A stretch of DNA of 23,835 bases, from the NCBI GenBank assembly GCA_043825875.1, contig JBDRRF010000026.1, positions 1 to 23,835 on the forward strand, in the 5' to 3' direction. Position numbers and translations under genes: made by a program. The notes under the pieces were generated by a model. It saw only the letters and a list, made by a program, of their open reading frames with translations, did not search any database and was not told where the DNA came from. Position 1 is the stretch's first letter. Every line of letters starts with the position of its first letter. This DNA is from Pseudomonadota bacterium. GTDB lineage: Bacteria; Desulfobacterota; Desulfobacteria; Desulfobacterales; RPRI01. Positions 253 through 20,161 of this stretch are shown here, piece by piece.

Positions 253-354
253 CACAGCATGATTTTGATACATTTTTAGGGATGGGGGTTTTTAATTTAA
301 AAACTAGTGTGCTTAATAATGGAAAATTTATACAGTATAGAGGCATGCCATAAT

Positions 355-984
355 ATGAAAAACATAAATATTTTCAGAAAAGGTATTTTATTGATGATAT
401 TGCTAATTCTAATATTCTCTGGATGCCACAGCAAAACAGTTTCGACCTCAAATGAATTCAATCTGACCAATGAAGAGATAAAGGAGTTGAAAATAAAAGC
501 AAATCAGGGGGGCATTAATGCGGCAGAAAAATTAGCTAATTATTATATATTTGTAGATTATAATCTTGAAGAGGTTGTTAAATATTTAAGAATTGTTGCC
601 GAAACAGGTGATACCAGTGCCCAATACAATTTAGCATACCATTTGTTGATACCATCAAATGATTCAATCATGCGTAAAGAAGGAGTTTATTGGCTAAGGA
701 TTTCAGCTAATTCAGGTGAGCAATATGCTCAAAAATATTTAGCAAACTTATATGAAACAGGAGATATTGTTGAGAAAAATTATTATAATGCGAAATATTG
801 GTATGAAAAAGCTGCAATATCAGGTAGTAGTTATTCAGTAGAAAAGTTGGCTGAATTCTATTTGGAAGGCATCGGATGTGACCGTAATAAAATTAAAGCC
901 TATGCCATATTATCATTTGTTCAGCAATCAATTGAAAAGACCTCAGCCCATTACAAGGAAATTGAAAATAAGAAAAAAAAATAA
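355..984 (+). CDS. Sel1/TPR-repeat lipoprotein, possibly frameshifted near the C-terminus
   Basis: Signal peptide with lipobox FSGC from ATG 355. Sel1 motifs AQYNLA, AQKYLANLYETG, YWYEKAA, LAEFYLEGIG. Stop falls right after an A9 run (973-981). Confidence 0.85.
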   Translation: MKNINIFRKGILLMILLILIFSGCHSKTVSTSNEFNLTNEEIKELKIKANQGGINAAEKLANYYIFVDYNLEEVVKYLRIVAETGDTSAQYNLAYHLLIPSNDSIMRKEGVYWLRISANSGEQYAQKYLANLYETGDIVEKNYYNAKYWYEKAAISGSSYSVEKLAEFYLEGIGCDRNKIKAYAILSFVQQSIEKTSAHYKEIENKKKK

Positions 985-1097
985 TATTATCAGAATCTGA
1001 AATAATTCAAGTCAAGGCAGAATTAATAAAGATAGAAGAAATATACAGGGGGAAGTATAAATGATATTCTAAACTTCTAAACTTATTTATCATAAAC

Positions 1098-1138
1098 CAG
1101 CGGTTGGAGATTTACTTCTTTAACCGCTGTTGTTTTTT
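1098..1138 (+). terminator. Intrinsic terminator after the Sel1 gene
   Basis: Stem CAGCGGTT (1098-1105)/AACCGCTG (1122-1129) followed by TTGTTTTTT. Confidence 0.65.
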
Positions 1139-1218
1139 GGGTGGGCGGTCGGGAGAATGATGAAATCAGCCCAGCCGCAAACCTTATTATTCAAGCCTTG
1201 CCTGGCGGGCTAAATGCC

Positions 1219-1247
1219 ATTTTACATAATTACGCGTTATCGGATGT
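1219..1247 (-). other. dif-like XerC/XerD site 1 (left arm of long hairpin)
   Basis: Minus strand ACATCCGATAA-CGCGTAA-TTATGTAAAAT: XerC-like arm, 7-nt spacer, XerD-like arm. Confidence 0.55.
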
Positions 1248-1291
1248 GCGCTACCTTTGAGGATTAAGAGTAAGCGTTTAATTAACTACAC

Positions 1292-2878
1292 TCATAGAGC
1301 AAAGTCGATAAGTTTTTTCTGGTCGATTTCCTGGGGCAGCAGCTTTTCATAGTCAGCAGTAGTTTTGGCAAGTGGCAGGTAATTAAATATGTATCGCAAA
1401 TAACTGTACGGCTCCAATCCGTTTGCTTTTGCTGTTTCTATCAGGCTGAAAAATATTGCACTGGCTTTGGCTCCTCTTGGATGGCCTGAAAACAGCCAGT
1501 TCTTTCTGCCGAAAACAAACGGGCGTATCGCGTTTTCAGCAAGATTGTTGTCAGGTTTCAGCCTGCCGTCTTCTATATAAACAATTAGCTTGCTCCATTG
1601 ATTGAGAGTATAACTCATAGCTTGTCCAAGTAAACCTTTTGGCGGGGTTTGAGAAATTCTCTGATCAAGCCATTTTTTAAAATCATTCAGTATGGGCTTT
1701 GATTTTTCCTGGCGGAGATCATAAATCTGTTCAAAAGAAAGATTGTTGGTTTTTGCATGTTTTTCGATTGCATACAATTTGCTGATGAAATTTATAGCCA
1801 CTTCTGCACTGCCGGTCTTTTGTTTTAAATTTTTGTTCTTTTGGCGGGCTTTGATAACTTCTGCAAATTTTCTGCGTGCATGTGACCAGCATCCAACAAG
1901 AATGATACCGACTCTCCGGCCAAGAGCATCATAGCCTGAATACGCATCTGTCTGTACATATCCATTGTAGTTGCCAAGAAAATCGTCCGGGATCTTTCCT
2001 GACCTTGACGGGTGATATTGATACATCAGCACAGGTGCGTCAGGAGGTCCTCCACGAAATACCCACATATATGACTTGCTTGTGTTGCTGCGGCCAGGTT
2101 CATTCAATACCTGTACCGTTGTTTCATCAATATTGATCAAAGGTCCTGATCTGATTTGCTGTTCCAACAGTTCTGCAAGAGGCTGGCATTTCTGGGCTCC
2201 TTGCATTAGCCAGTTAGCCATTGTTGCACGGGATATATCTATGCCTGTTCTGGAAAATATCTTTTCCTGTCTATACAAAGGCAATGCATCGGCAAATTTT
2301 GATATCACAATATGTGAAAGCAACCCTGAAGTTGCAATGGATTTAGGTAAGATCTGTGCCGGAACAGGGGCTGTTTTTACCGCTCCTGTGTCAGACTCAA
2401 TACCTTCACATTTTTTACATGCATATTTAAGCCTGATGTTGCGTATCACTCTGACTTTGGCCGGTATTATATCCAGCTTTTCCGATACTTCCTCTCCGAT
2501 TTTATCCATTTCGCAGCCACAGGTACAGACTTTTTCTTCATCGCTTAAATCATGGATAACATCGACCCGTGGAAGATTTTGGGGTAAAGGCTTGCGGCCA
2601 GTCTTTTTCCTTTTGTGTGAAGGAATAACAATTGTTTCTTCTTCCGCAAGTTCTTGCTCAACAATTTCTTCCAATTCATCGAACAACTGAAGCTGCGTAT
2701 CATCAATATCAATATGTTTTTCTGATTTCCGGCCAAATAGTTTTGATCTGAGATATCGATTTTTTTCTTCAAGAAATTGAATACGAAGCTGAAAAAAATC
2801 GATCGTTTTAGATTTTGAAACAATGATTTCTTTAAGTTCGTCAATACTGTCCGGAAGTTGTTGTGCGCTCAAACTCAT
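1292..2878 (-). CDS. tnpC: IS66 DDE transposase TnpC
   Basis: LFGRKSEK, zinc finger CTCG...CKKC, IDETTVQVL, QTDAYSGY, CWSHARRKF, DNNLAENAIRP, GRKNWLF. Confidence 0.97.
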   Translation of the reverse strand: MSLSAQQLPDSIDELKEIIVSKSKTIDFFQLRIQFLEEKNRYLRSKLFGRKSEKHIDIDDTQLQLFDELEEIVEQELAEEETIVIPSHKRKKTGRKPLPQNLPRVDVIHDLSDEEKVCTCGCEMDKIGEEVSEKLDIIPAKVRVIRNIRLKYACKKCEGIESDTGAVKTAPVPAQILPKSIATSGLLSHIVISKFADALPLYRQEKIFSRTGIDISRATMANWLMQGAQKCQPLAELLEQQIRSGPLINIDETTVQVLNEPGRSNTSKSYMWVFRGGPPDAPVLMYQYHPSRSGKIPDDFLGNYNGYVQTDAYSGYDALGRRVGIILVGCWSHARRKFAEVIKARQKNKNLKQKTGSAEVAINFISKLYAIEKHAKTNNLSFEQIYDLRQEKSKPILNDFKKWLDQRISQTPPKGLLGQAMSYTLNQWSKLIVYIEDGRLKPDNNLAENAIRPFVFGRKNWLFSGHPRGAKASAIFFSLIETAKANGLEPYSYLRYIFNYLPLAKTTADYEKLLPQEIDQKKLIDFAL

Positions 2879-2933
2879 AAAACTTACATACTACAACTGG
2901 AAGACTTTATAAAGTATTTTCTTTAAAAAAATG

Positions 2934-3284
2934 CTATATTAATGTAGAATATGAAAGTTTTTTATGCCCACGAATCTGATGAAATTCTAATCCGTCAAGA
3001 AGCCAGTTTAGTTCTCTTTGACCAATCCTTAAAATTTCATCTTTTACTTCCGGCCATATGAACTTTTGTTTTTCAAGCCGTTTGTACCAAATACAAAAAC
3101 CATTTCTATCCCAGTAGAGTATCTTGATAATATCACGTCTGCGATTACAAAAAACAAACAAGTGTCCTGAAAAAGGATCAAGATCAAGAGAATCCTCAAT
3201 AAGAATGGAAAGCCCGTTAATTGATTTACGCATATCAGTATTGCCAAGAGCAAGATATACCTGAGTATGTGATGGAAACATCAT
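2934..3284 (-). CDS. tnpB: IS66 accessory protein TnpB
   Basis: TDMRKSINGL, LFVFCNRRRDIIKILYWDRNGF, KRLE. Confidence 0.96.
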   Translation of the reverse strand: MMFPSHTQVYLALGNTDMRKSINGLSILIEDSLDLDPFSGHLFVFCNRRRDIIKILYWDRNGFCIWYKRLEKQKFIWPEVKDEILRIGQRELNWLLDGLEFHQIRGHKKLSYSTLI

Positions 3285-3601
3285 CAGGACTCTAAAACCC
3301 GCAGCAGTTTAATAAGAGTAGCGGATTCAAATCCGTTGCAAATCTCTATCCGGTATTTATCATAGACTGTCAGGCATATTGCCGCAGATGGTTTGAAAAT
3401 ATCAGCTTTCAAATTTAAAGGAACAATTGAGACCGGTGCTTTAATATATTTTTTCTTCCAGTAATAAAATGATTTGATAGATAAATTGTGAAGTCTACAA
3501 AAATTTGCCTGAGACAGATCACTCTCCTCCCATGCTTTGATATGCCTGCGCCATTGACTACGCTTTATCTTAATCTGGTCTTTTATAACCTCATCTGCCA
3601 T
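3284..3601 (-). CDS. tnpA: IS66 accessory protein TnpA
   Basis: WRRHIKAWEESDLSQANFCRLHNLSIKSFYYWKKK HTH motif; first gene inside the IS66 ends. Confidence 0.92.
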   Translation of the reverse strand: MADEVIKDQIKIKRSQWRRHIKAWEESDLSQANFCRLHNLSIKSFYYWKKKYIKAPVSIVPLNLKADIFKPSAAICLTVYDKYRIEICNGFESATLIKLLRVLES

Positions 3602-3700
3602 GCTAAATCCTCCTTGTGAATTTTGGAAGCATCATGGCATAGTCTGAATTGTTTGTGAAGATGGGGTTAATTAAGCGCTTACGATTAAGATTGACAGCGC

Positions 3701-3729
3701 ATGTACGATAACGGCCAATTATGTAATGC
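3701..3729 (+). other. dif-like XerC/XerD site 2 (right arm of long hairpin)
   Basis: ATGTACGATAA-CGGCCAA-TTATGTAATGC, inverted relative to 1219-1247. Confidence 0.5.
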
Positions 3730-3806
3730 TGCACTTTGGCATGACAGGCAGGGCGTTAAGATGACAGCGGCTACCTTGTTTATAAATCAGATCAACATCC
3801 TTTATT

Positions 3807-4064
3807 TTATTCATAGTGATACCGGCAACTGATGATTGTAATGATTTCTTTTTCGACTTTATATACCAGCCGGTGTTCTTTGCTGATTCGTCTTGACCAG
3901 TAGCCGGATAATTGAAATCTCAACCTTTCAGGTTTGCCGATACCATTTTCAGGATCACGCAGGATGTCTTTTAAAAGCTGTTTGATCCGTTTTGCCAGGC
4001 GTTTATCCTTATTCAAAAACCATTCAAAATCCTTCCAGGCTTCCTGAGTAAAAAGAATCTTCAT
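3807..4064 (-). CDS. yoeB: Txe/YoeB-family toxin
   Basis: GIGKPERLR...LSGYWSRRISKEHRLVY...SCRYHY. Confidence 0.95.
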   Translation of the reverse strand: MKILFTQEAWKDFEWFLNKDKRLAKRIKQLLKDILRDPENGIGKPERLRFQLSGYWSRRISKEHRLVYKVEKEIITIISCRYHYE

Positions 4065-4318
4065 AAGTCCTCTATAGAAAACTCAACAAATTTACCGTCT
4101 TTTACTTCCTTTAAAGATTTTTCAAGATGCGCCCGGTTAGCCGGTGAACTTAACAGATAGGCTGTTTCTTCCATAGCCTGAAAATCATCCAGAGAAACAA
4201 GAACTGCCTGTTCTTCAGACTGGCTACCGACAATGATTGCCGGTTCCGAGTTTTTGCAGACATCCTGAATCAGCTCACGCAGATTTTTTTTTGCATTGTT
4301 ATATGTTATTGCTCTCAT
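4061..4318 (-). CDS. yefM: Phd/YefM-family antitoxin
   Basis: MRAITYNNAKKNL, AVLVSLDDF, ETAYLLSSPAN. ATG 4318 with AGAGGT RBS. 4-bp overlap with the toxin. Confidence 0.93.
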   Translation of the reverse strand: MRAITYNNAKKNLRELIQDVCKNSEPAIIVGSQSEEQAVLVSLDDFQAMEETAYLLSSPANRAHLEKSLKEVKDGKFVEFSIEDL

Positions 4319-4331
4319 AAATTTACCTCTT

Positions 4332-4706
4332 TTATGCTGCATGCTCGGCAGTATTCTCTTTTGTAACAAGATTCATTATTTTTTTCTTGGTCAGCATGGA
4401 GTCAATCACCCTGATCAATGCTGTCTTATCTTCAACATCAAGTGAATCTATAAGCTTAACCCTTTCCATCAGCTCTTTATTTTCAACCCTTACTTCCTTA
4501 AAATCTTCATCCGTATCACTGATAAGAAAATCGATAGATACATCAAATGCGCTTGCAAGCTTTTGCACAACATCCAACGAAGGATTATACTTGCCGGTCT
4601 CTATCCGGTTGATGTGAGACAGATGAGACCCTATTTGCTCGGCAAGCTGGCTTTGTGACCATCCTCTTTTTTTTCTCAATACTTTTAAGTTTTTTGCAAG
4701 ATTCAT
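4332..4706 (-). CDS. XRE/Cro-C1 HTH repressor, RstR-like
   Basis: HTH LRKKRGWSQSQLA...IETGKYNPS...VSIDFL. C-terminus ENKELMERVKLIDSLDVEDKTALIRVIDSML resembles CTXphi RstR as I recall it. ATG 4706 with GGAGGA RBS. Confidence 0.88.
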   Translation of the reverse strand: MNLAKNLKVLRKKRGWSQSQLAEQIGSHLSHINRIETGKYNPSLDVVQKLASAFDVSIDFLISDTDEDFKEVRVENKELMERVKLIDSLDVEDKTALIRVIDSMLTKKKIMNLVTKENTAEHAA

Positions 4707-4828
4707 CTTTATCGTTCCTCCCTGAATTTTCATTTTTAAATAAAATAACACAATTAGATAAATATAACAACTTTTTTAGCCTTGATGTGGTAATATGGCT
4801 TGACATATTAGGCTAATAAGCTTATGTA

Positions 4829-4995
4829 CTATCGGGGTCAAACCTTGAAATATGAACTAACTTGACAAATTGATATTTTATTTATAAAAACAATTTATGG
4901 CACGACAATATATGCTATCGGGGTCAAACCTTGAAATATGAACTAACTTGACAAATTGATATTTTATTTATAAAAACAATTTATGGCACGACAAT
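4829..4995. repeat. 81-bp direct duplication of the RAYT left end, promoter region and first codons
   Basis: 4829-4909 = 4915-4995 (CTATCGGGGTCAAACC...ATGGCACGACAAT), separated by ATATG. Confidence 0.95.
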
Positions 4996-5953
4996 GGCGC
5001 ATAGAATACCCGGGAGCACTTTATCATGTGATGTCCCGGGGAAATGGCAGTCAGGATATTTTTCAAACAGATGATGACCGGACGCTGTTCCTTGAATTAA
5101 TAGAGGAATTGGCAGAGCGATTCAATATTGAAATCTATGCCTATGTGTTGATGGGCAATCATTATCATCTGCTGTTGAAAACAGTTGAAGCGAACCTATC
5201 CAAGGCCATGCAATGGTTCGGTACGACATATACCCGCAAATTCAATCTGAACAATCACACCAGTGGTCATCTTTTCCAAGGCCGGTTTAAAAGCATCATC
5301 GTGGAAAACGACGCTTATCTCATGCGGTTGTCCTGCTATATCCATCGTAATCCACTTCGAGCAGGAGTTGTGGTTAGATTGGCGGATTATAAATGGAACA
5401 GTTATCTATTTTACGGTTATAAAAAGAAAGGTCCGGACTGGTTAAAAACCTCAATCATACTGGACTATCTTTCAGCATCCGACCCGCACAAGGCTTACCG
5501 CAAGAAAATGCAGGAATATGCTGAAGAAAACCAAAGTGTTTGGGAAGATGTTAAGCATGGGTTGATTTATGGCGGTCAAGAATTTGTAAAAAAGCTAAAA
5601 GACCGATTTTTAGCAAATGAAAAAAATATTGAGTTGCCTCAACATAACAGTCTATTCAGGACATTTGCACCGGAATTGCTATTCGCAAAAGCAACAGAAA
5701 TCCTAAAACTTGATGTGGAAATGGTTCGAAATAACAAGAAAAGATTACAAGGTGATGAAAAAGAAAAACGAGACTTGCTGATTTATTTACTATGGAAAAC
5801 CGGCCAATTGTCAAACCAGGAAATCGGTAATCTGATTGGGCTTTCCTATTCTATGGTTAGTCGCAGTGTAAAATCAACGAATGACAAGATATTGTATGAT
5901 CAGAGCTATAGGCGACAGTATCAAGCCGTCAGTTCAGAATTCAATGTTTGACC
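4921..5953 (+). mobile_element. RAYT-like element bounded by terminal inverted repeats
   Basis: Left GGGTCAAACCTTGAAATATGAACT (4921-4944). Right AGTTCAGAATTCAATGTTTGACC (5931-5953) overlaps the stop codon. The copy-1 right end (187-210) is a 22/24 inverted match to the left end. Confidence 0.75.
4983..5951 (+). CDS. RAYT-like HUH (Y1_Tnp, IS200-related) transposase with C-terminal HTH
   Basis: YHVMSRGN, YVLMGNHYHLL (HUH), GHLFQGRFKS, YIHRNP (catalytic Tyr); C-terminal LSNQEIGNLIGLSYSMVSR HTH. Confidence 0.93.
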   Translation: MARQWRIEYPGALYHVMSRGNGSQDIFQTDDDRTLFLELIEELAERFNIEIYAYVLMGNHYHLLLKTVEANLSKAMQWFGTTYTRKFNLNNHTSGHLFQGRFKSIIVENDAYLMRLSCYIHRNPLRAGVVVRLADYKWNSYLFYGYKKKGPDWLKTSIILDYLSASDPHKAYRKKMQEYAEENQSVWEDVKHGLIYGGQEFVKKLKDRFLANEKNIELPQHNSLFRTFAPELLFAKATEILKLDVEMVRNNKKRLQGDEKEKRDLLIYLLWKTGQLSNQEIGNLIGLSYSMVSRSVKSTNDKILYDQSYRRQYQAVSSEFNV

Positions 5954-6016
5954 ATAGGTGTATCTTTATTGTTATGCGAGAATTTGAACAAATAGAATAC
6001 AGAAGGAAAACCAACA

Positions 6017-6886: not shown

Positions 6887-7197
6887 CGGCATCAAGATGG
6901 GGAAACAATAGAGGCAGTATTTGGAAGAATTTGTCTCAAACCTTGAATTGTGATTTAGATAAGAATTCTACAACTGATGTATGTTTGTGCTTCTTAATCA
7001 CAATTTAAGATTTGACACATTTTTACTCTTTATTTAAAAAAAGACGTTAATTCTTTTTTCAACCTAATTGCCCAACCACACAGTTTCAGCAGATGAACTG
7101 CTGAACTGGAATGTAAATATAAAGGGTCAAAAATAGACTTGCTCCATCGAAGGCTGCTGTGAGCATCAATCAAATGATTGATAACGAGGAGTATGGC

Positions 7198-15967: not shown

Positions 15968-16109
15968 GAACCAGTTTCAAAACGCCCCATTTTGGCCGAT
16001 CTCTGCGTTGGGCTCAAAATTCAATCCTCGAAATACTAAATGTATTCCTGCGGTTGAAATTTTCTCCCGCCTTGAGCTTGACCAAACTAAAACGTTTTGA
16101 AAGTGGCTC
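15968..16109 (-). mobile_element. 142-bp MITE, copy A
   Basis: Terminal IRs; reverse complement of 20020-20161 with 6 mismatches; TSD CATA at 15964-15967 and 16110-16113. Confidence 0.9.
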
Positions 16110-20019: not shown

Positions 20020-20161
20020 GAGCCACTTTCAAAACGTTTCAGTTTGGTCAAGCTCAAGGCGGGAGAAAATTTCAACCACAGGAATACATTAAGTATTTCG
20101 AGGATTGAAATTTGAGCCCAACGCAGAGATCGGCCAAAATGGGACGTTTTGAAACTGGCTC
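20020..20161 (+). mobile_element. 142-bp MITE, copy B
   Basis: TIR GAGCCACTTTCAAAACGT/ACGTTTTGAAACTGGCTC (17/18); TSD CTTA at 20016-20019 and 20162-20165. Confidence 0.9.

Follow-up and report, generated by a model that had tools for sequence, protein, structure and literature searches.

Integron attC sites, one of which follows each cassette ORF, are imperfect palindromes with R'', L'', L' and R' boxes and extrahelical bases; they recombine in the form of a single folded strand, and replication resolves the product. IMEX of the CTX type are genomes of filamentous ssDNA phages or their satellites. They have no recombinase of their own and are integrated by host XerCD at the chromosomal dif, with a new dif formed at one end; only XerC exchanges strands, the product being resolved by replication, and the folded overlap of CTX matches dif on the XerC side. 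In the attP(+) site of the CTX phage of Vibrio cholerae, as it is described in the relevant parts of two papers, two inverted XerC/XerD site pairs are brought together when one strand folds, leaving the overlap unpaired, and it is one strand that is active (PMC3442271, PMC5357621). One of these texts also describes, in part, the plasmid Xer sites cer and psi, where a replicon borrows host XerCD independently of FtsK, and where the spacer of cer departs from 6 bp (PMC5357621). For Rhs toxins, the sections consulted of the tip displacement model propose that an incoming tip shifts the resident tip downstream through a hypothetical episomal circle (Jackson et al. 2009, PMC2935791). In the rAID-1 arrays of Bacteroidales, as described in the passages available, variable genes of interbacterial conflict lie next to a recombinase of the XerD family, and the intergenic sequences are conserved; the XerD-like recombinase is at the 5' end, and behind it low-GC orphan immunity genes run in the same direction (bioRxiv 10.1101/471110).

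The window, the whole stretch of 23,835 nucleotides that was analysed, contains a site that shares features with several of these. It is interrupted by an IS66 element (1270..3682, minus strand) with inverted ends, three ORFs, two of which have an IS66 Pfam match, and an 8-bp TSD at 1262-1269 and 3683-3690. When IS66 and one TSD are removed, 1173-1269 and 3691-3772 join into an empty site of 179 nt, a single long imperfect stem with every helix that the sequence-only reading had named. The plus strand folds at -41.2 kcal/mol with DNA parameters (z -6.0), equally low in none of 100 dinucleotide shuffles, and the minus strand at -33.3 kcal/mol (z -4.1). The hidden hairpin proposed in that reading was thus recovered, and a genome of the same genus, G011, has it as an uninterrupted, near-identical copy with a loop almost identical to that of the window.

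From the outside inwards, the plus strand has the left arm of the outer stem at 1173..1218, the first of the covarying helices in the fold, followed by dif-like site 1 (1219..1247, minus strand), with its D-arm at 1219-1229, a 7-nt spacer at 1230-1236 and its C-arm at 1237-1247. The left part of the loop (1248..1269, plus) ends in the first TSD copy, and behind IS66 the second copy and the right part of the loop make up 3683..3700 (plus). Dif-like site 2 (3701..3729, plus) has the C-arm at 3701-3711, a 7-nt spacer at 3712-3718 and the D-arm at 3719-3729, and the right arm of the outer stem, defined by fold and covariation, takes up 3730..3772 (plus). Each arm of the hairpin is in this way a C-arm, a 7-nt spacer and a D-arm. 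That the two spacers would mismatch on folding had been noticed before, and the computed fold agrees, as they pair at their ends only and leave a 3×3 central bubble. The conserved module begins near 1077 and not at 1173, and this cargo-side flank (1077..1172, plus) includes a small palindrome at 1100-1127, of a type that recurs beside hairpins at both of their positions in the element described below, and also where there is no hairpin.

The dif of the host was found as a candidate on contig C49, at about 24,010, with a 6-nt spacer and a flip in KOPS polarity; like every dif site used here it is based on pattern. The four arms match this candidate at 10 (D-arm) and 9 (C-arm) of 11 positions for site 1, and at 8 and 8 of 11 for site 2, in line with the earlier claim that the arms are akin to dif. 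The window itself has no terminus-like switch in GC skew.

In the host genome (4.77 Mb) the hairpin occurs twice in full and once as a half copy. The second full copy (C30:45023-45307) is 86% identical and has lost 4 nt from its right C-arm by deletion, and C106 retains only the left half. This half copy is more simply explained by deletion than as an attL/attR scar, because a closely similar TA toxin is found with a full or near-full hairpin in the genomes G064 and G152. Among four copies of the same genus no crossover at the hairpin was seen, and the loop groups together with the right flank. Contigs of sequencing run X1, which may be the source sample, lack exactly the 2421-nt insertion; runs X2 and X3 contain only little of the sequence and X4 almost nothing, and therefore we make no claim on habitat.

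The comparison of homologues showed that the fold is conserved. In fifteen homologues of the 7/7 type, 97.8% of the cells were paired, compared to 20–41% in slid controls, and two-sided changes were found at 8 pairs and in 25 cells, as compared to 3.6 and 7.7 in shuffles (0/500), although these counts overstate independence since the copies are related by descent. The compensatory changes support the earlier proposal of a structure folding on one strand. An asymmetric class has spacers of 6 nt with 9–11 nt, where 44 of 54 positions are paired between short and long spacer, compared to 31.2 ± 3.0 after swapping of the partners (0/5000), and where only the first base pair is common with dif. The same strand of the module was the better folder in 36 of 36 copies, a count also inflated by common descent, in which the position labels of L127:10467, L152:6054, W01 and G246 were set after the data had been seen, the ambiguous L201 is excluded, and the degenerate hairpin of G152, which matches the HMM and misses the arm pattern, is not included. 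On this favoured strand the arm mismatches are G·T in 72 cases versus A·C in 19.

The arms also follow the host. C-arms of the Desulfobacterales type have on average 8.2 of 11 positions in common with the dif of the window's own genome (G000) and 5.0 of 11 with that of E. coli, and for the copies of Enterobacterales the values are 7.3 to the E. coli dif and 6.0 to the G000 dif. In fourteen copies one arm has kept the 6-nt spacing, and this arm could be recombined in double-stranded form. Another arrangement, with a C-arm palindrome and then a D-arm palindrome, was seen in 7 of 120 loci, and it is left unaccounted for by the model that we favour below.

The hairpin is carried by an element of which we found no earlier description in the literature searched. 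It contains a toxin tip with immunity, HTH and TA genes, a primase of the CHC2-Toprim type, and Xer-like recombinases, one or two in number and intact; it seems to exchange the toxic tips on the Rhs and CdiA weapons of bacteria, and it is likely to be self-replicating. In Desulfosarcina alkanivorans the border of a unit of 8006 bp coincides with the first base of a motif in the Rhs core, about 415 bp from the hairpin, and at a second locus of this genome orphan tips start at the same base of the motif. An 11.3-kb circular Lonsdalea record was also observed, which could be a collapsed tandem array. The hairpin occurs either after the recombinase operon (position A) or, inverted relative to this, between the cargo and the TA/HTH genes (position B), and three loci (G094, L127 and L137) have both. 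Of 15 genomes retrieved through a primase match 7 had the hairpin, as did 5 of 12 plasmid or E. coli records and 14 of 82 metagenome or viral loci, where shuffles gave 0–3; it was not detectable in the other 68 of these 82, many of them short, nor in any of a set of six plasmid records from outside Enterobacterales. As no hairpin was detected at the majority of element loci, it is not essential. The element is widespread; in a phylum-wide sample its primase was found in only 3 of 401 genomes.

The window module is a relic at position B, with IS66 in the loop and a Y1 transposase in place of the core. The cargo (immunity) slot is filled by a putative lipoprotein with Sel1 repeats (307..984, plus; Pfam Sel1), for which an immunity role may be assumed from its position; an Rhs fragment and a small ORF are found in this slot on C30 and in G011. 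On the other side of the hairpin lies a YoeB/YefM toxin-antitoxin pair (3807..4318, minus), 81% and 76% identical to the pair at the same position of the intact G094 element, followed by an XRE-type HTH gene (4332..4706, minus), 79% identical to the one divergent from the primase in the intact G062 element. The REP-associated-type Y1 transposase gene (4823..5951, plus), just below the cut-off for NF047646, occupies the place of the primase and recombinases of intact elements; its 86-bp end is duplicated, and positions 1-252 hold the 3' end of another copy. None of the 14 window ORFs scanned was phage-like, two queries did not find the element primase in the host genome, and none of nine tyrosine-recombinase matches there was of the element type, as judged by sequence and partly by HMM.

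Who uses the hairpin is less obvious. The sequence-only reading took it for the attachment site of an IMEX-like, Xer-exploiting element, and a true attP of the CTX type would let a free single-stranded circle enter the chromosomal dif by XerC exchange, as a second route beside insertion at the toxin gene. The geometry and the mimicry of host dif agree with this, and in nine asymmetric spacer pairs the first base of the long spacer, read on the favoured strand, is T, as in most host dif spacers. However, in all five genomes or records where a single contig holds both dif and hairpin, these were about 60 kb to 2.8 Mb apart, none of the 82 metagenome or viral element loci contained a canonical dif pattern, and the G000 dif is unoccupied, being flanked by xseA and an unrelated short ORF. 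The window spacers also begin with CG and dif with TG, so that one wobble and one mismatch are expected, and the viral contig collection held only 3 loci encoding the primase and no exact double-site pattern. We consider an attP of this kind improbable. An attachment site for integration at dif is not supported, nor is an IMEX-like element, as the carrying element has its own Xer-like recombinases and, where mapped, a border at the toxin-gene motif, about 280–415 bp from the hairpin; the likeness to the CTX phage attP holds for the folded geometry of inverted sites. Of the refuting outcomes named with the sequence-only reading, none that could be computed occurred. The recombinases of the element, an Int1/Int2 heteropair or a single PRK01287-type enzyme, could instead act on the hairpin themselves, and being derived from Xer have kept dif-like arms. 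At position A it lies 90–480 bp past the last recombinase gene, both enzymes have the full R-K-H-R-H-Y catalytic set, and a pair of unlike enzymes would suit a site with a C- and a D-arm. This is nevertheless unlikely, since the arms track host dif and not the recombinase tree (a quick version, with XerC and XerD on long branches), and since hairpin cores differing at 3 of 58 positions (G061 and G062) come with Int1 and Int2 that are only 38 and 42% identical, the segment before the HxxR motif differing widely, while G246, at 57–58% identity to G061 in the recombinase comparison, has a different, 6/11 hairpin. Single-recombinase enterobacterial elements also bear the two-armed, asymmetric site, many elements with intact recombinases lack it, and the mapped unit border lies elsewhere.

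It is also conceivable that nothing recombines at the hairpin, and that it is a single-strand origin, a replication barrier or a bidirectional terminator where XerCD may only sit. The free position and dispensability of the hairpin would fit, as would its location between convergent genes at position B and an outer stem that is longer than an Xer site needs and also covaries. Such roles would however not need the exact keeping of both 11-bp arms and of a folded overlap of 6–7 bp, and a scan of the window at Rfam gathering thresholds, with IS66 still splitting the site, gave no match; hairpins at position A have their favoured strand antisense to the preceding operon, which argues against an RNA terminator. 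We regard this, too, as improbable. The genome has integrons, with four integron-integrase-like genes, two of them above the TIGR02249 cut-off, and for this reason a degenerate attC site was considered, together with a MITE. The outer left arm is in some copies faintly like what we take to be the R''-L'' box. The matching R' box is absent, however, the attC-like palindromes of the genome's own cassette arrays look different by eye, and the hairpin is consistently linked to the primase element. A MITE would be expected in many dispersed copies with its own TSD, and neither was seen, so that both readings are very unlikely indeed.

On balance, and with little more than even confidence, we favour that in the hairpin two inverted mimics of host dif fold back in a conserved manner, likely to be bound by host XerC and XerD only while one particular strand is single, and that it is an optional module of an element which encodes a primase and recombinases and is likely to swap toxin tips. 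It probably serves host XerCD as a folded site like that of CTX, through which units of the element are likely to be excised or resolved one at a time. The recombinases of the element would insert a circle with a new tip and immunity gene at the toxin-core motif, each insertion pushing the old tip downstream and so building tandem arrays, and the primase-ATPase would replicate the element and expose single strands. With the odd spacers (7/7, or 6 with 9–11 nt), all or one of the two sites would be poor double-stranded substrates, and folding would restore a single Xer site, the overlap of which is bubbled or bulged. A single strand exchange of the XerC type between like hairpins of neighbouring units, completed by replication as in the CTX phage, could then free or resolve a single unit, at a distance from the terminus and independently of FtsK.

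A wider and more tentative possibility is that self-replicating toxin-tip shuttles of this kind drive the C-terminal displacement of Rhs and CdiA across phyla, their own recombinases inserting tips at a fixed base of the toxin core and the dif-mimic hairpin recruiting XerCD to cut units from the arrays as circles. How new polymorphic toxin tips are gained is an old open question; the model of 2009, in the sections consulted, needed an episomal circle and asked for its origin, no integrase being known with Rhs (PMC2935791). Candidates can now be named for the replicase and the recombinases, and also for a fixed junction and a folded site of the Xer type. If the shuttles exist, tip displacement would gain the circular intermediate that it has lacked, and Xer recombination of folded DNA would have a natural use at sites other than dif. 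The data also suggest that single-strand Xer sites in the style of CTX are used off dif, retuned to the host dif in at least two phyla.

The displaced tips are arranged in the element loci as in the displacement model. With rAID-1, as described in the passages available, the element shares an Xer-type recombinase next to variable conflict genes; its cargo consists of toxin tip and immunity pairs behind a primase-recombinase core and not of an orphan immunity array, and those passages mention no primase, toxin tips, tandem arrays of whole elements or dif-mimic hairpin. The hairpin resembles attC in being an imperfect palindrome that folds as a single strand, but its arms are dif half-sites and not R and L boxes, there is not one site per cassette, and the element has no IntI. 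Like attP(+), it has inverted sites in a long stem of one strand, about 150 bp in CTX and about 180 nt here. The loop between the C-arms is however 12–55 nt, compared to about 90 nt between the sites in CTX, and the hairpin lies away from dif, is optional, and occurs in two inverted positions. No filamentous-phage genes were found in the element, which, unlike IMEX of the CTX type, has a primase and, in intact relatives, one or two Xer-like recombinases of its own with the full catalytic set, and a mapped border at a toxin-gene motif. While cer and psi are double-stranded sites governed by accessory proteins, it is the folding of the strand that would exert the control here.

When IS66 (1270-3682, with an 8-bp TSD) is removed and 1173-1269 is joined to 3691-3772, the resulting 179 nt fold into a single imperfect stem. 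With DNA parameters the plus strand of this reconstruction reaches -41.2 kcal/mol (z -6.0, 0 of 100 shuffles as low) and the minus strand -33.3 kcal/mol. Site 1 has its XerD-like arm (D-arm) at 1219-1229, spacer at 1230-1236 and XerC-like arm (C-arm) at 1237-1247; after a 32-nt loop, which contains IS66, site 2 follows with C-arm 3701-3711, spacer 3712-3718 and D-arm 3719-3729. The empty site is real, because the hairpin is uninterrupted in G011, a genome of the same genus, the window's own genome (G000) has a second copy on contig C30 and half a copy on C106, and contigs of sequencing run X1, possibly the source sample, omit exactly the IS66 insertion. The sequence-only reading of two inverted dif-like sites with 7-nt spacers is borne out. 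The spacers were also said to mismatch when folded, which holds for a central 3x3 bubble, but the two bases at each end do pair. The observation is confirmed and its interpretation partly supported. Of 61 genomes searched by pattern, four matched: G000, G008 and G011 carry the hairpin and G016 a lone site.

Searching GTDB for the double site yielded seven loci (Desulfobacterales, Desulfobacteraceae, Desulfosarcina alkanivorans and one unclassified MAG). Recombinase and primase genes, proposed earlier as neighbours to look for, were both found; in four of the seven loci a primase and two tyrosine recombinases (Int1, Int2) immediately precede the hairpin, and an Rhs tip or the contig end comes after it. 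CHC2 and Toprim domains were identified in the primase, along with a Walker-A-like motif. For three of four element recombinases tested the top NCBIfam match is PRK01287, below every Xer cut-off; all have intact catalytic residues and, in a quick tree, branch apart from XerC and XerD of the hosts. At one D. alkanivorans locus a full Rhs gene precedes a unit of 8006 bp, which runs tip, immunity, HTH, primase, Int1, Int2, small ORF, hairpin, linker; after it, tip, immunity and HTH occur once more. The start of the repeat coincides with base 1 of VQNNPVN, an Rhs core motif that lies about 415 bp away from the hairpin, and orphan tips at a second locus start at the same base; in the comparison genome G094 the toxin-core motif is ~280 bp from the hairpin. 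Within the order, 19 of 401 genomes had a primase match, and the hairpin was present in 7 of the 15 with regions fetched on this match, one of the seven being also among the GTDB matches. The hairpin either follows the recombinases (position A) or stands in inverted orientation with cargo on one side and TA/HTH on the other (position B). Both are occupied in G094, L127 and L137. In G014, of the same genus, an intact element of the single-recombinase clade (L080, L081) has a 7-nt-spaced palindrome behind the recombinase, replacing the hairpin. The element is apparently undescribed, no description being found in searches of openly available full texts.

What remains of the module in the window is a relic of the position-B type. 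YoeB (81% identity) and YefM (76%) correspond to the pair at position B in G094, the HTH has 79% identity to that of G062, and a Y1 transposase occupies the place where the element core would be expected. Neither the primase nor element-type recombinases were found in G000, a 99.8%-complete genome. The Sel1-type gene of the window presumably has an immunity role. Y1 (RAYT-like) transposase genes are located at 1-252 and 4823-5963, and also at L030:2149 and in L031/L032; they lie directly upstream of the element HTH in the window and in D. alkanivorans, and beside primase/Rhs pieces in G062, a placement which may reflect a target preference. An inverted repeat at 6932-7019 (28-nt arms, 86%) resembles Y1-transposase ends. 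A small palindrome (1100-1127) that flanks the hairpin on its cargo side, a candidate priming or origin signal, has further copies in G000 (C23:2051, C57:1599, C96:19709); the type occurs at both positions, and in elements and Rhs orphan arrays lacking the hairpin. A 142-nt internally palindromic repeat is present in two inverted copies (15968-16109 and 20020-20161, 96%).

The primase also has matches in 36 plasmid records, and an Enterobacter unit has partial matches in 135 of 5426 E. coli genomes. Twelve records opened show the same gene order with a single recombinase, often in tandem, the annotated neighbours being CdiA, Rhs, M23 or invasin-like genes; among Enterobacterales records the hairpin occurs in 5 of 6, and among the others in none of 6. 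Among metagenome and viral loci (83, one left out) it occurs in 14 of 82, with 16 hairpins against 0-3 in shuffles. L084 (NZ_CP072857.1), an 11.3-kb circular record with element genes only, two tips and one hairpin, is either a free circle or a collapsed tandem array. The first unit of an Enterobacter array (L086:2114-2144) has only a D-arm/9-nt/D-arm junction, a precise loss of the hairpin's inner part via recombination or slippage; later units have the full hairpin. A two-recombinase element at L168:6903 has proteobacterial-type hairpin arms.

The compensatory changes looked for in homologous hairpins are present. In 15 aligned copies with two 7-nt spacers, the outermost four predicted pairs being dropped as poorly aligned, 97.8% of cells are paired (slid controls 20-41%) and 25 cells have changed on both sides, as against 7.7 in shuffles (0/500). 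In nine asymmetric copies a 6-nt spacer faces one of 9-11 nt and pairs with its ends; 44 of 54 positions are paired (swapped partners 31.2 +/- 3.0), and their sequences indicate a 6-bp overlap with a bulge, maintained through many changes. When position is assigned from gene context, with four labels set after the data were seen and L201 and a degenerate G152 copy excluded, it is the same strand of the module that folds better in each of 36 copies; arm mismatches on this strand are G.T in 72 cases versus A.C in 19. These counts are not independent, since the copies are kin.

The arms are related to the host dif, as had been proposed for comparison: those of the window are identical at 8-10 of 11 positions to the G000 candidate on C49, adjoining xseA, the only match in that genome with both arms and a dif-type 6-nt spacer. 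KOPS converge on it (upstream 2 forward/0 reverse, downstream 7 reverse/1 forward), and it is unoccupied by any element. A further dif-like site of G000 with a 6-nt spacer (L004, C36:390) lies on a short contig with ORFs resembling, by eye, phage terminase and portal genes. Desulfobacterales-type C-arms match the G000 dif at 8.2 of 11 positions and the E. coli dif at 5.0, and Enterobacterales C-arms at 6.0 and 7.3; one E. coli hairpin D-arm is identical to the dif arm. On the same contig, hairpins are 1.75 and 1.48 Mb from the dif candidate in D. alkanivorans, 2.8 Mb in G094, 1.35 Mb in G086, 1.7 Mb in the further record W01, and about 60-85 kb in W02 (rhs locus). The canonical dif pattern was absent from all 82 metagenome and viral loci.

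Most likely, we infer, new tips are inserted at the toxin-core motif by the element's recombinases, and the hairpin would be an accessory site for host XerCD, active once the favoured strand is exposed. If the site works as in CTX (PMC3442271, PMC5357621), one strand exchange and replication between two like hairpins in a tandem array might release or resolve a unit. With partners that are identical, a match to dif would not be required, in keeping with a position that is free and not at dif. Against this, the same-genus copies compared show no crossover at the hairpin, and the majority of elements lack it. Also unaccounted for is a second arrangement at the same positions, in which a C-arm palindrome precedes a D-arm palindrome (8 matches, spread over 7 of 120 loci, and none in 10 shuffles; L065:5361-5461, L066:4176-4290, L028:1460 and 3958, L122:7377, L124:6441, L138:2832, L198:6632). 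It has a short spacer hairpin between the palindromes, is found at A or B, and its outer arms are often the same or nearly the same as a host dif arm.

That the hairpin is instead the substrate of Int1/Int2, which it adjoins at position A, appears unlikely: the G061 and G062 hairpins have only 3 differences in 58 core positions while their recombinases are 38% and 42% identical, and G246 recombinases are 57-58% identical to those of G061, yet its hairpin is of the other spacer class. By these comparisons the hairpin does not follow the element recombinases. A structure that never recombines is quite improbable. The view of an attachment site of an IMEX-like element did not hold, the hairpin not being at dif, relatives having their own recombinases and no filamentous-phage genes being found; despite the dif-like arms, a true IMEX attP is decidedly improbable. 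An attC or MITE is very improbable indeed. G000 does have four integron-integrase-like genes (C107, C68, C51, C79; L005-L008; open frames of 331, 331, 453 and 535 aa), three with cassette arrays and palindromes resembling attC.

A circular intermediate was proposed for Rhs tip displacement when no integrase was known with Rhs (Jackson et al. 2009, PMC2935791). Zhang et al. 2012 (PMC3482391) noted XerC/D beside polyimmunity loci; the first 300,000 of the 354,187 characters of that text have no match for primase. The layout of rAID-1, as far as described in 10.1101/471110, differs from that of the element. The hairpin has its geometry in common with CTX attP(+), while location, own recombinases and phage genes separate it from IMEX (background in PMC9226527). 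It appears to be a variant of a known site type, in an apparently undescribed element.
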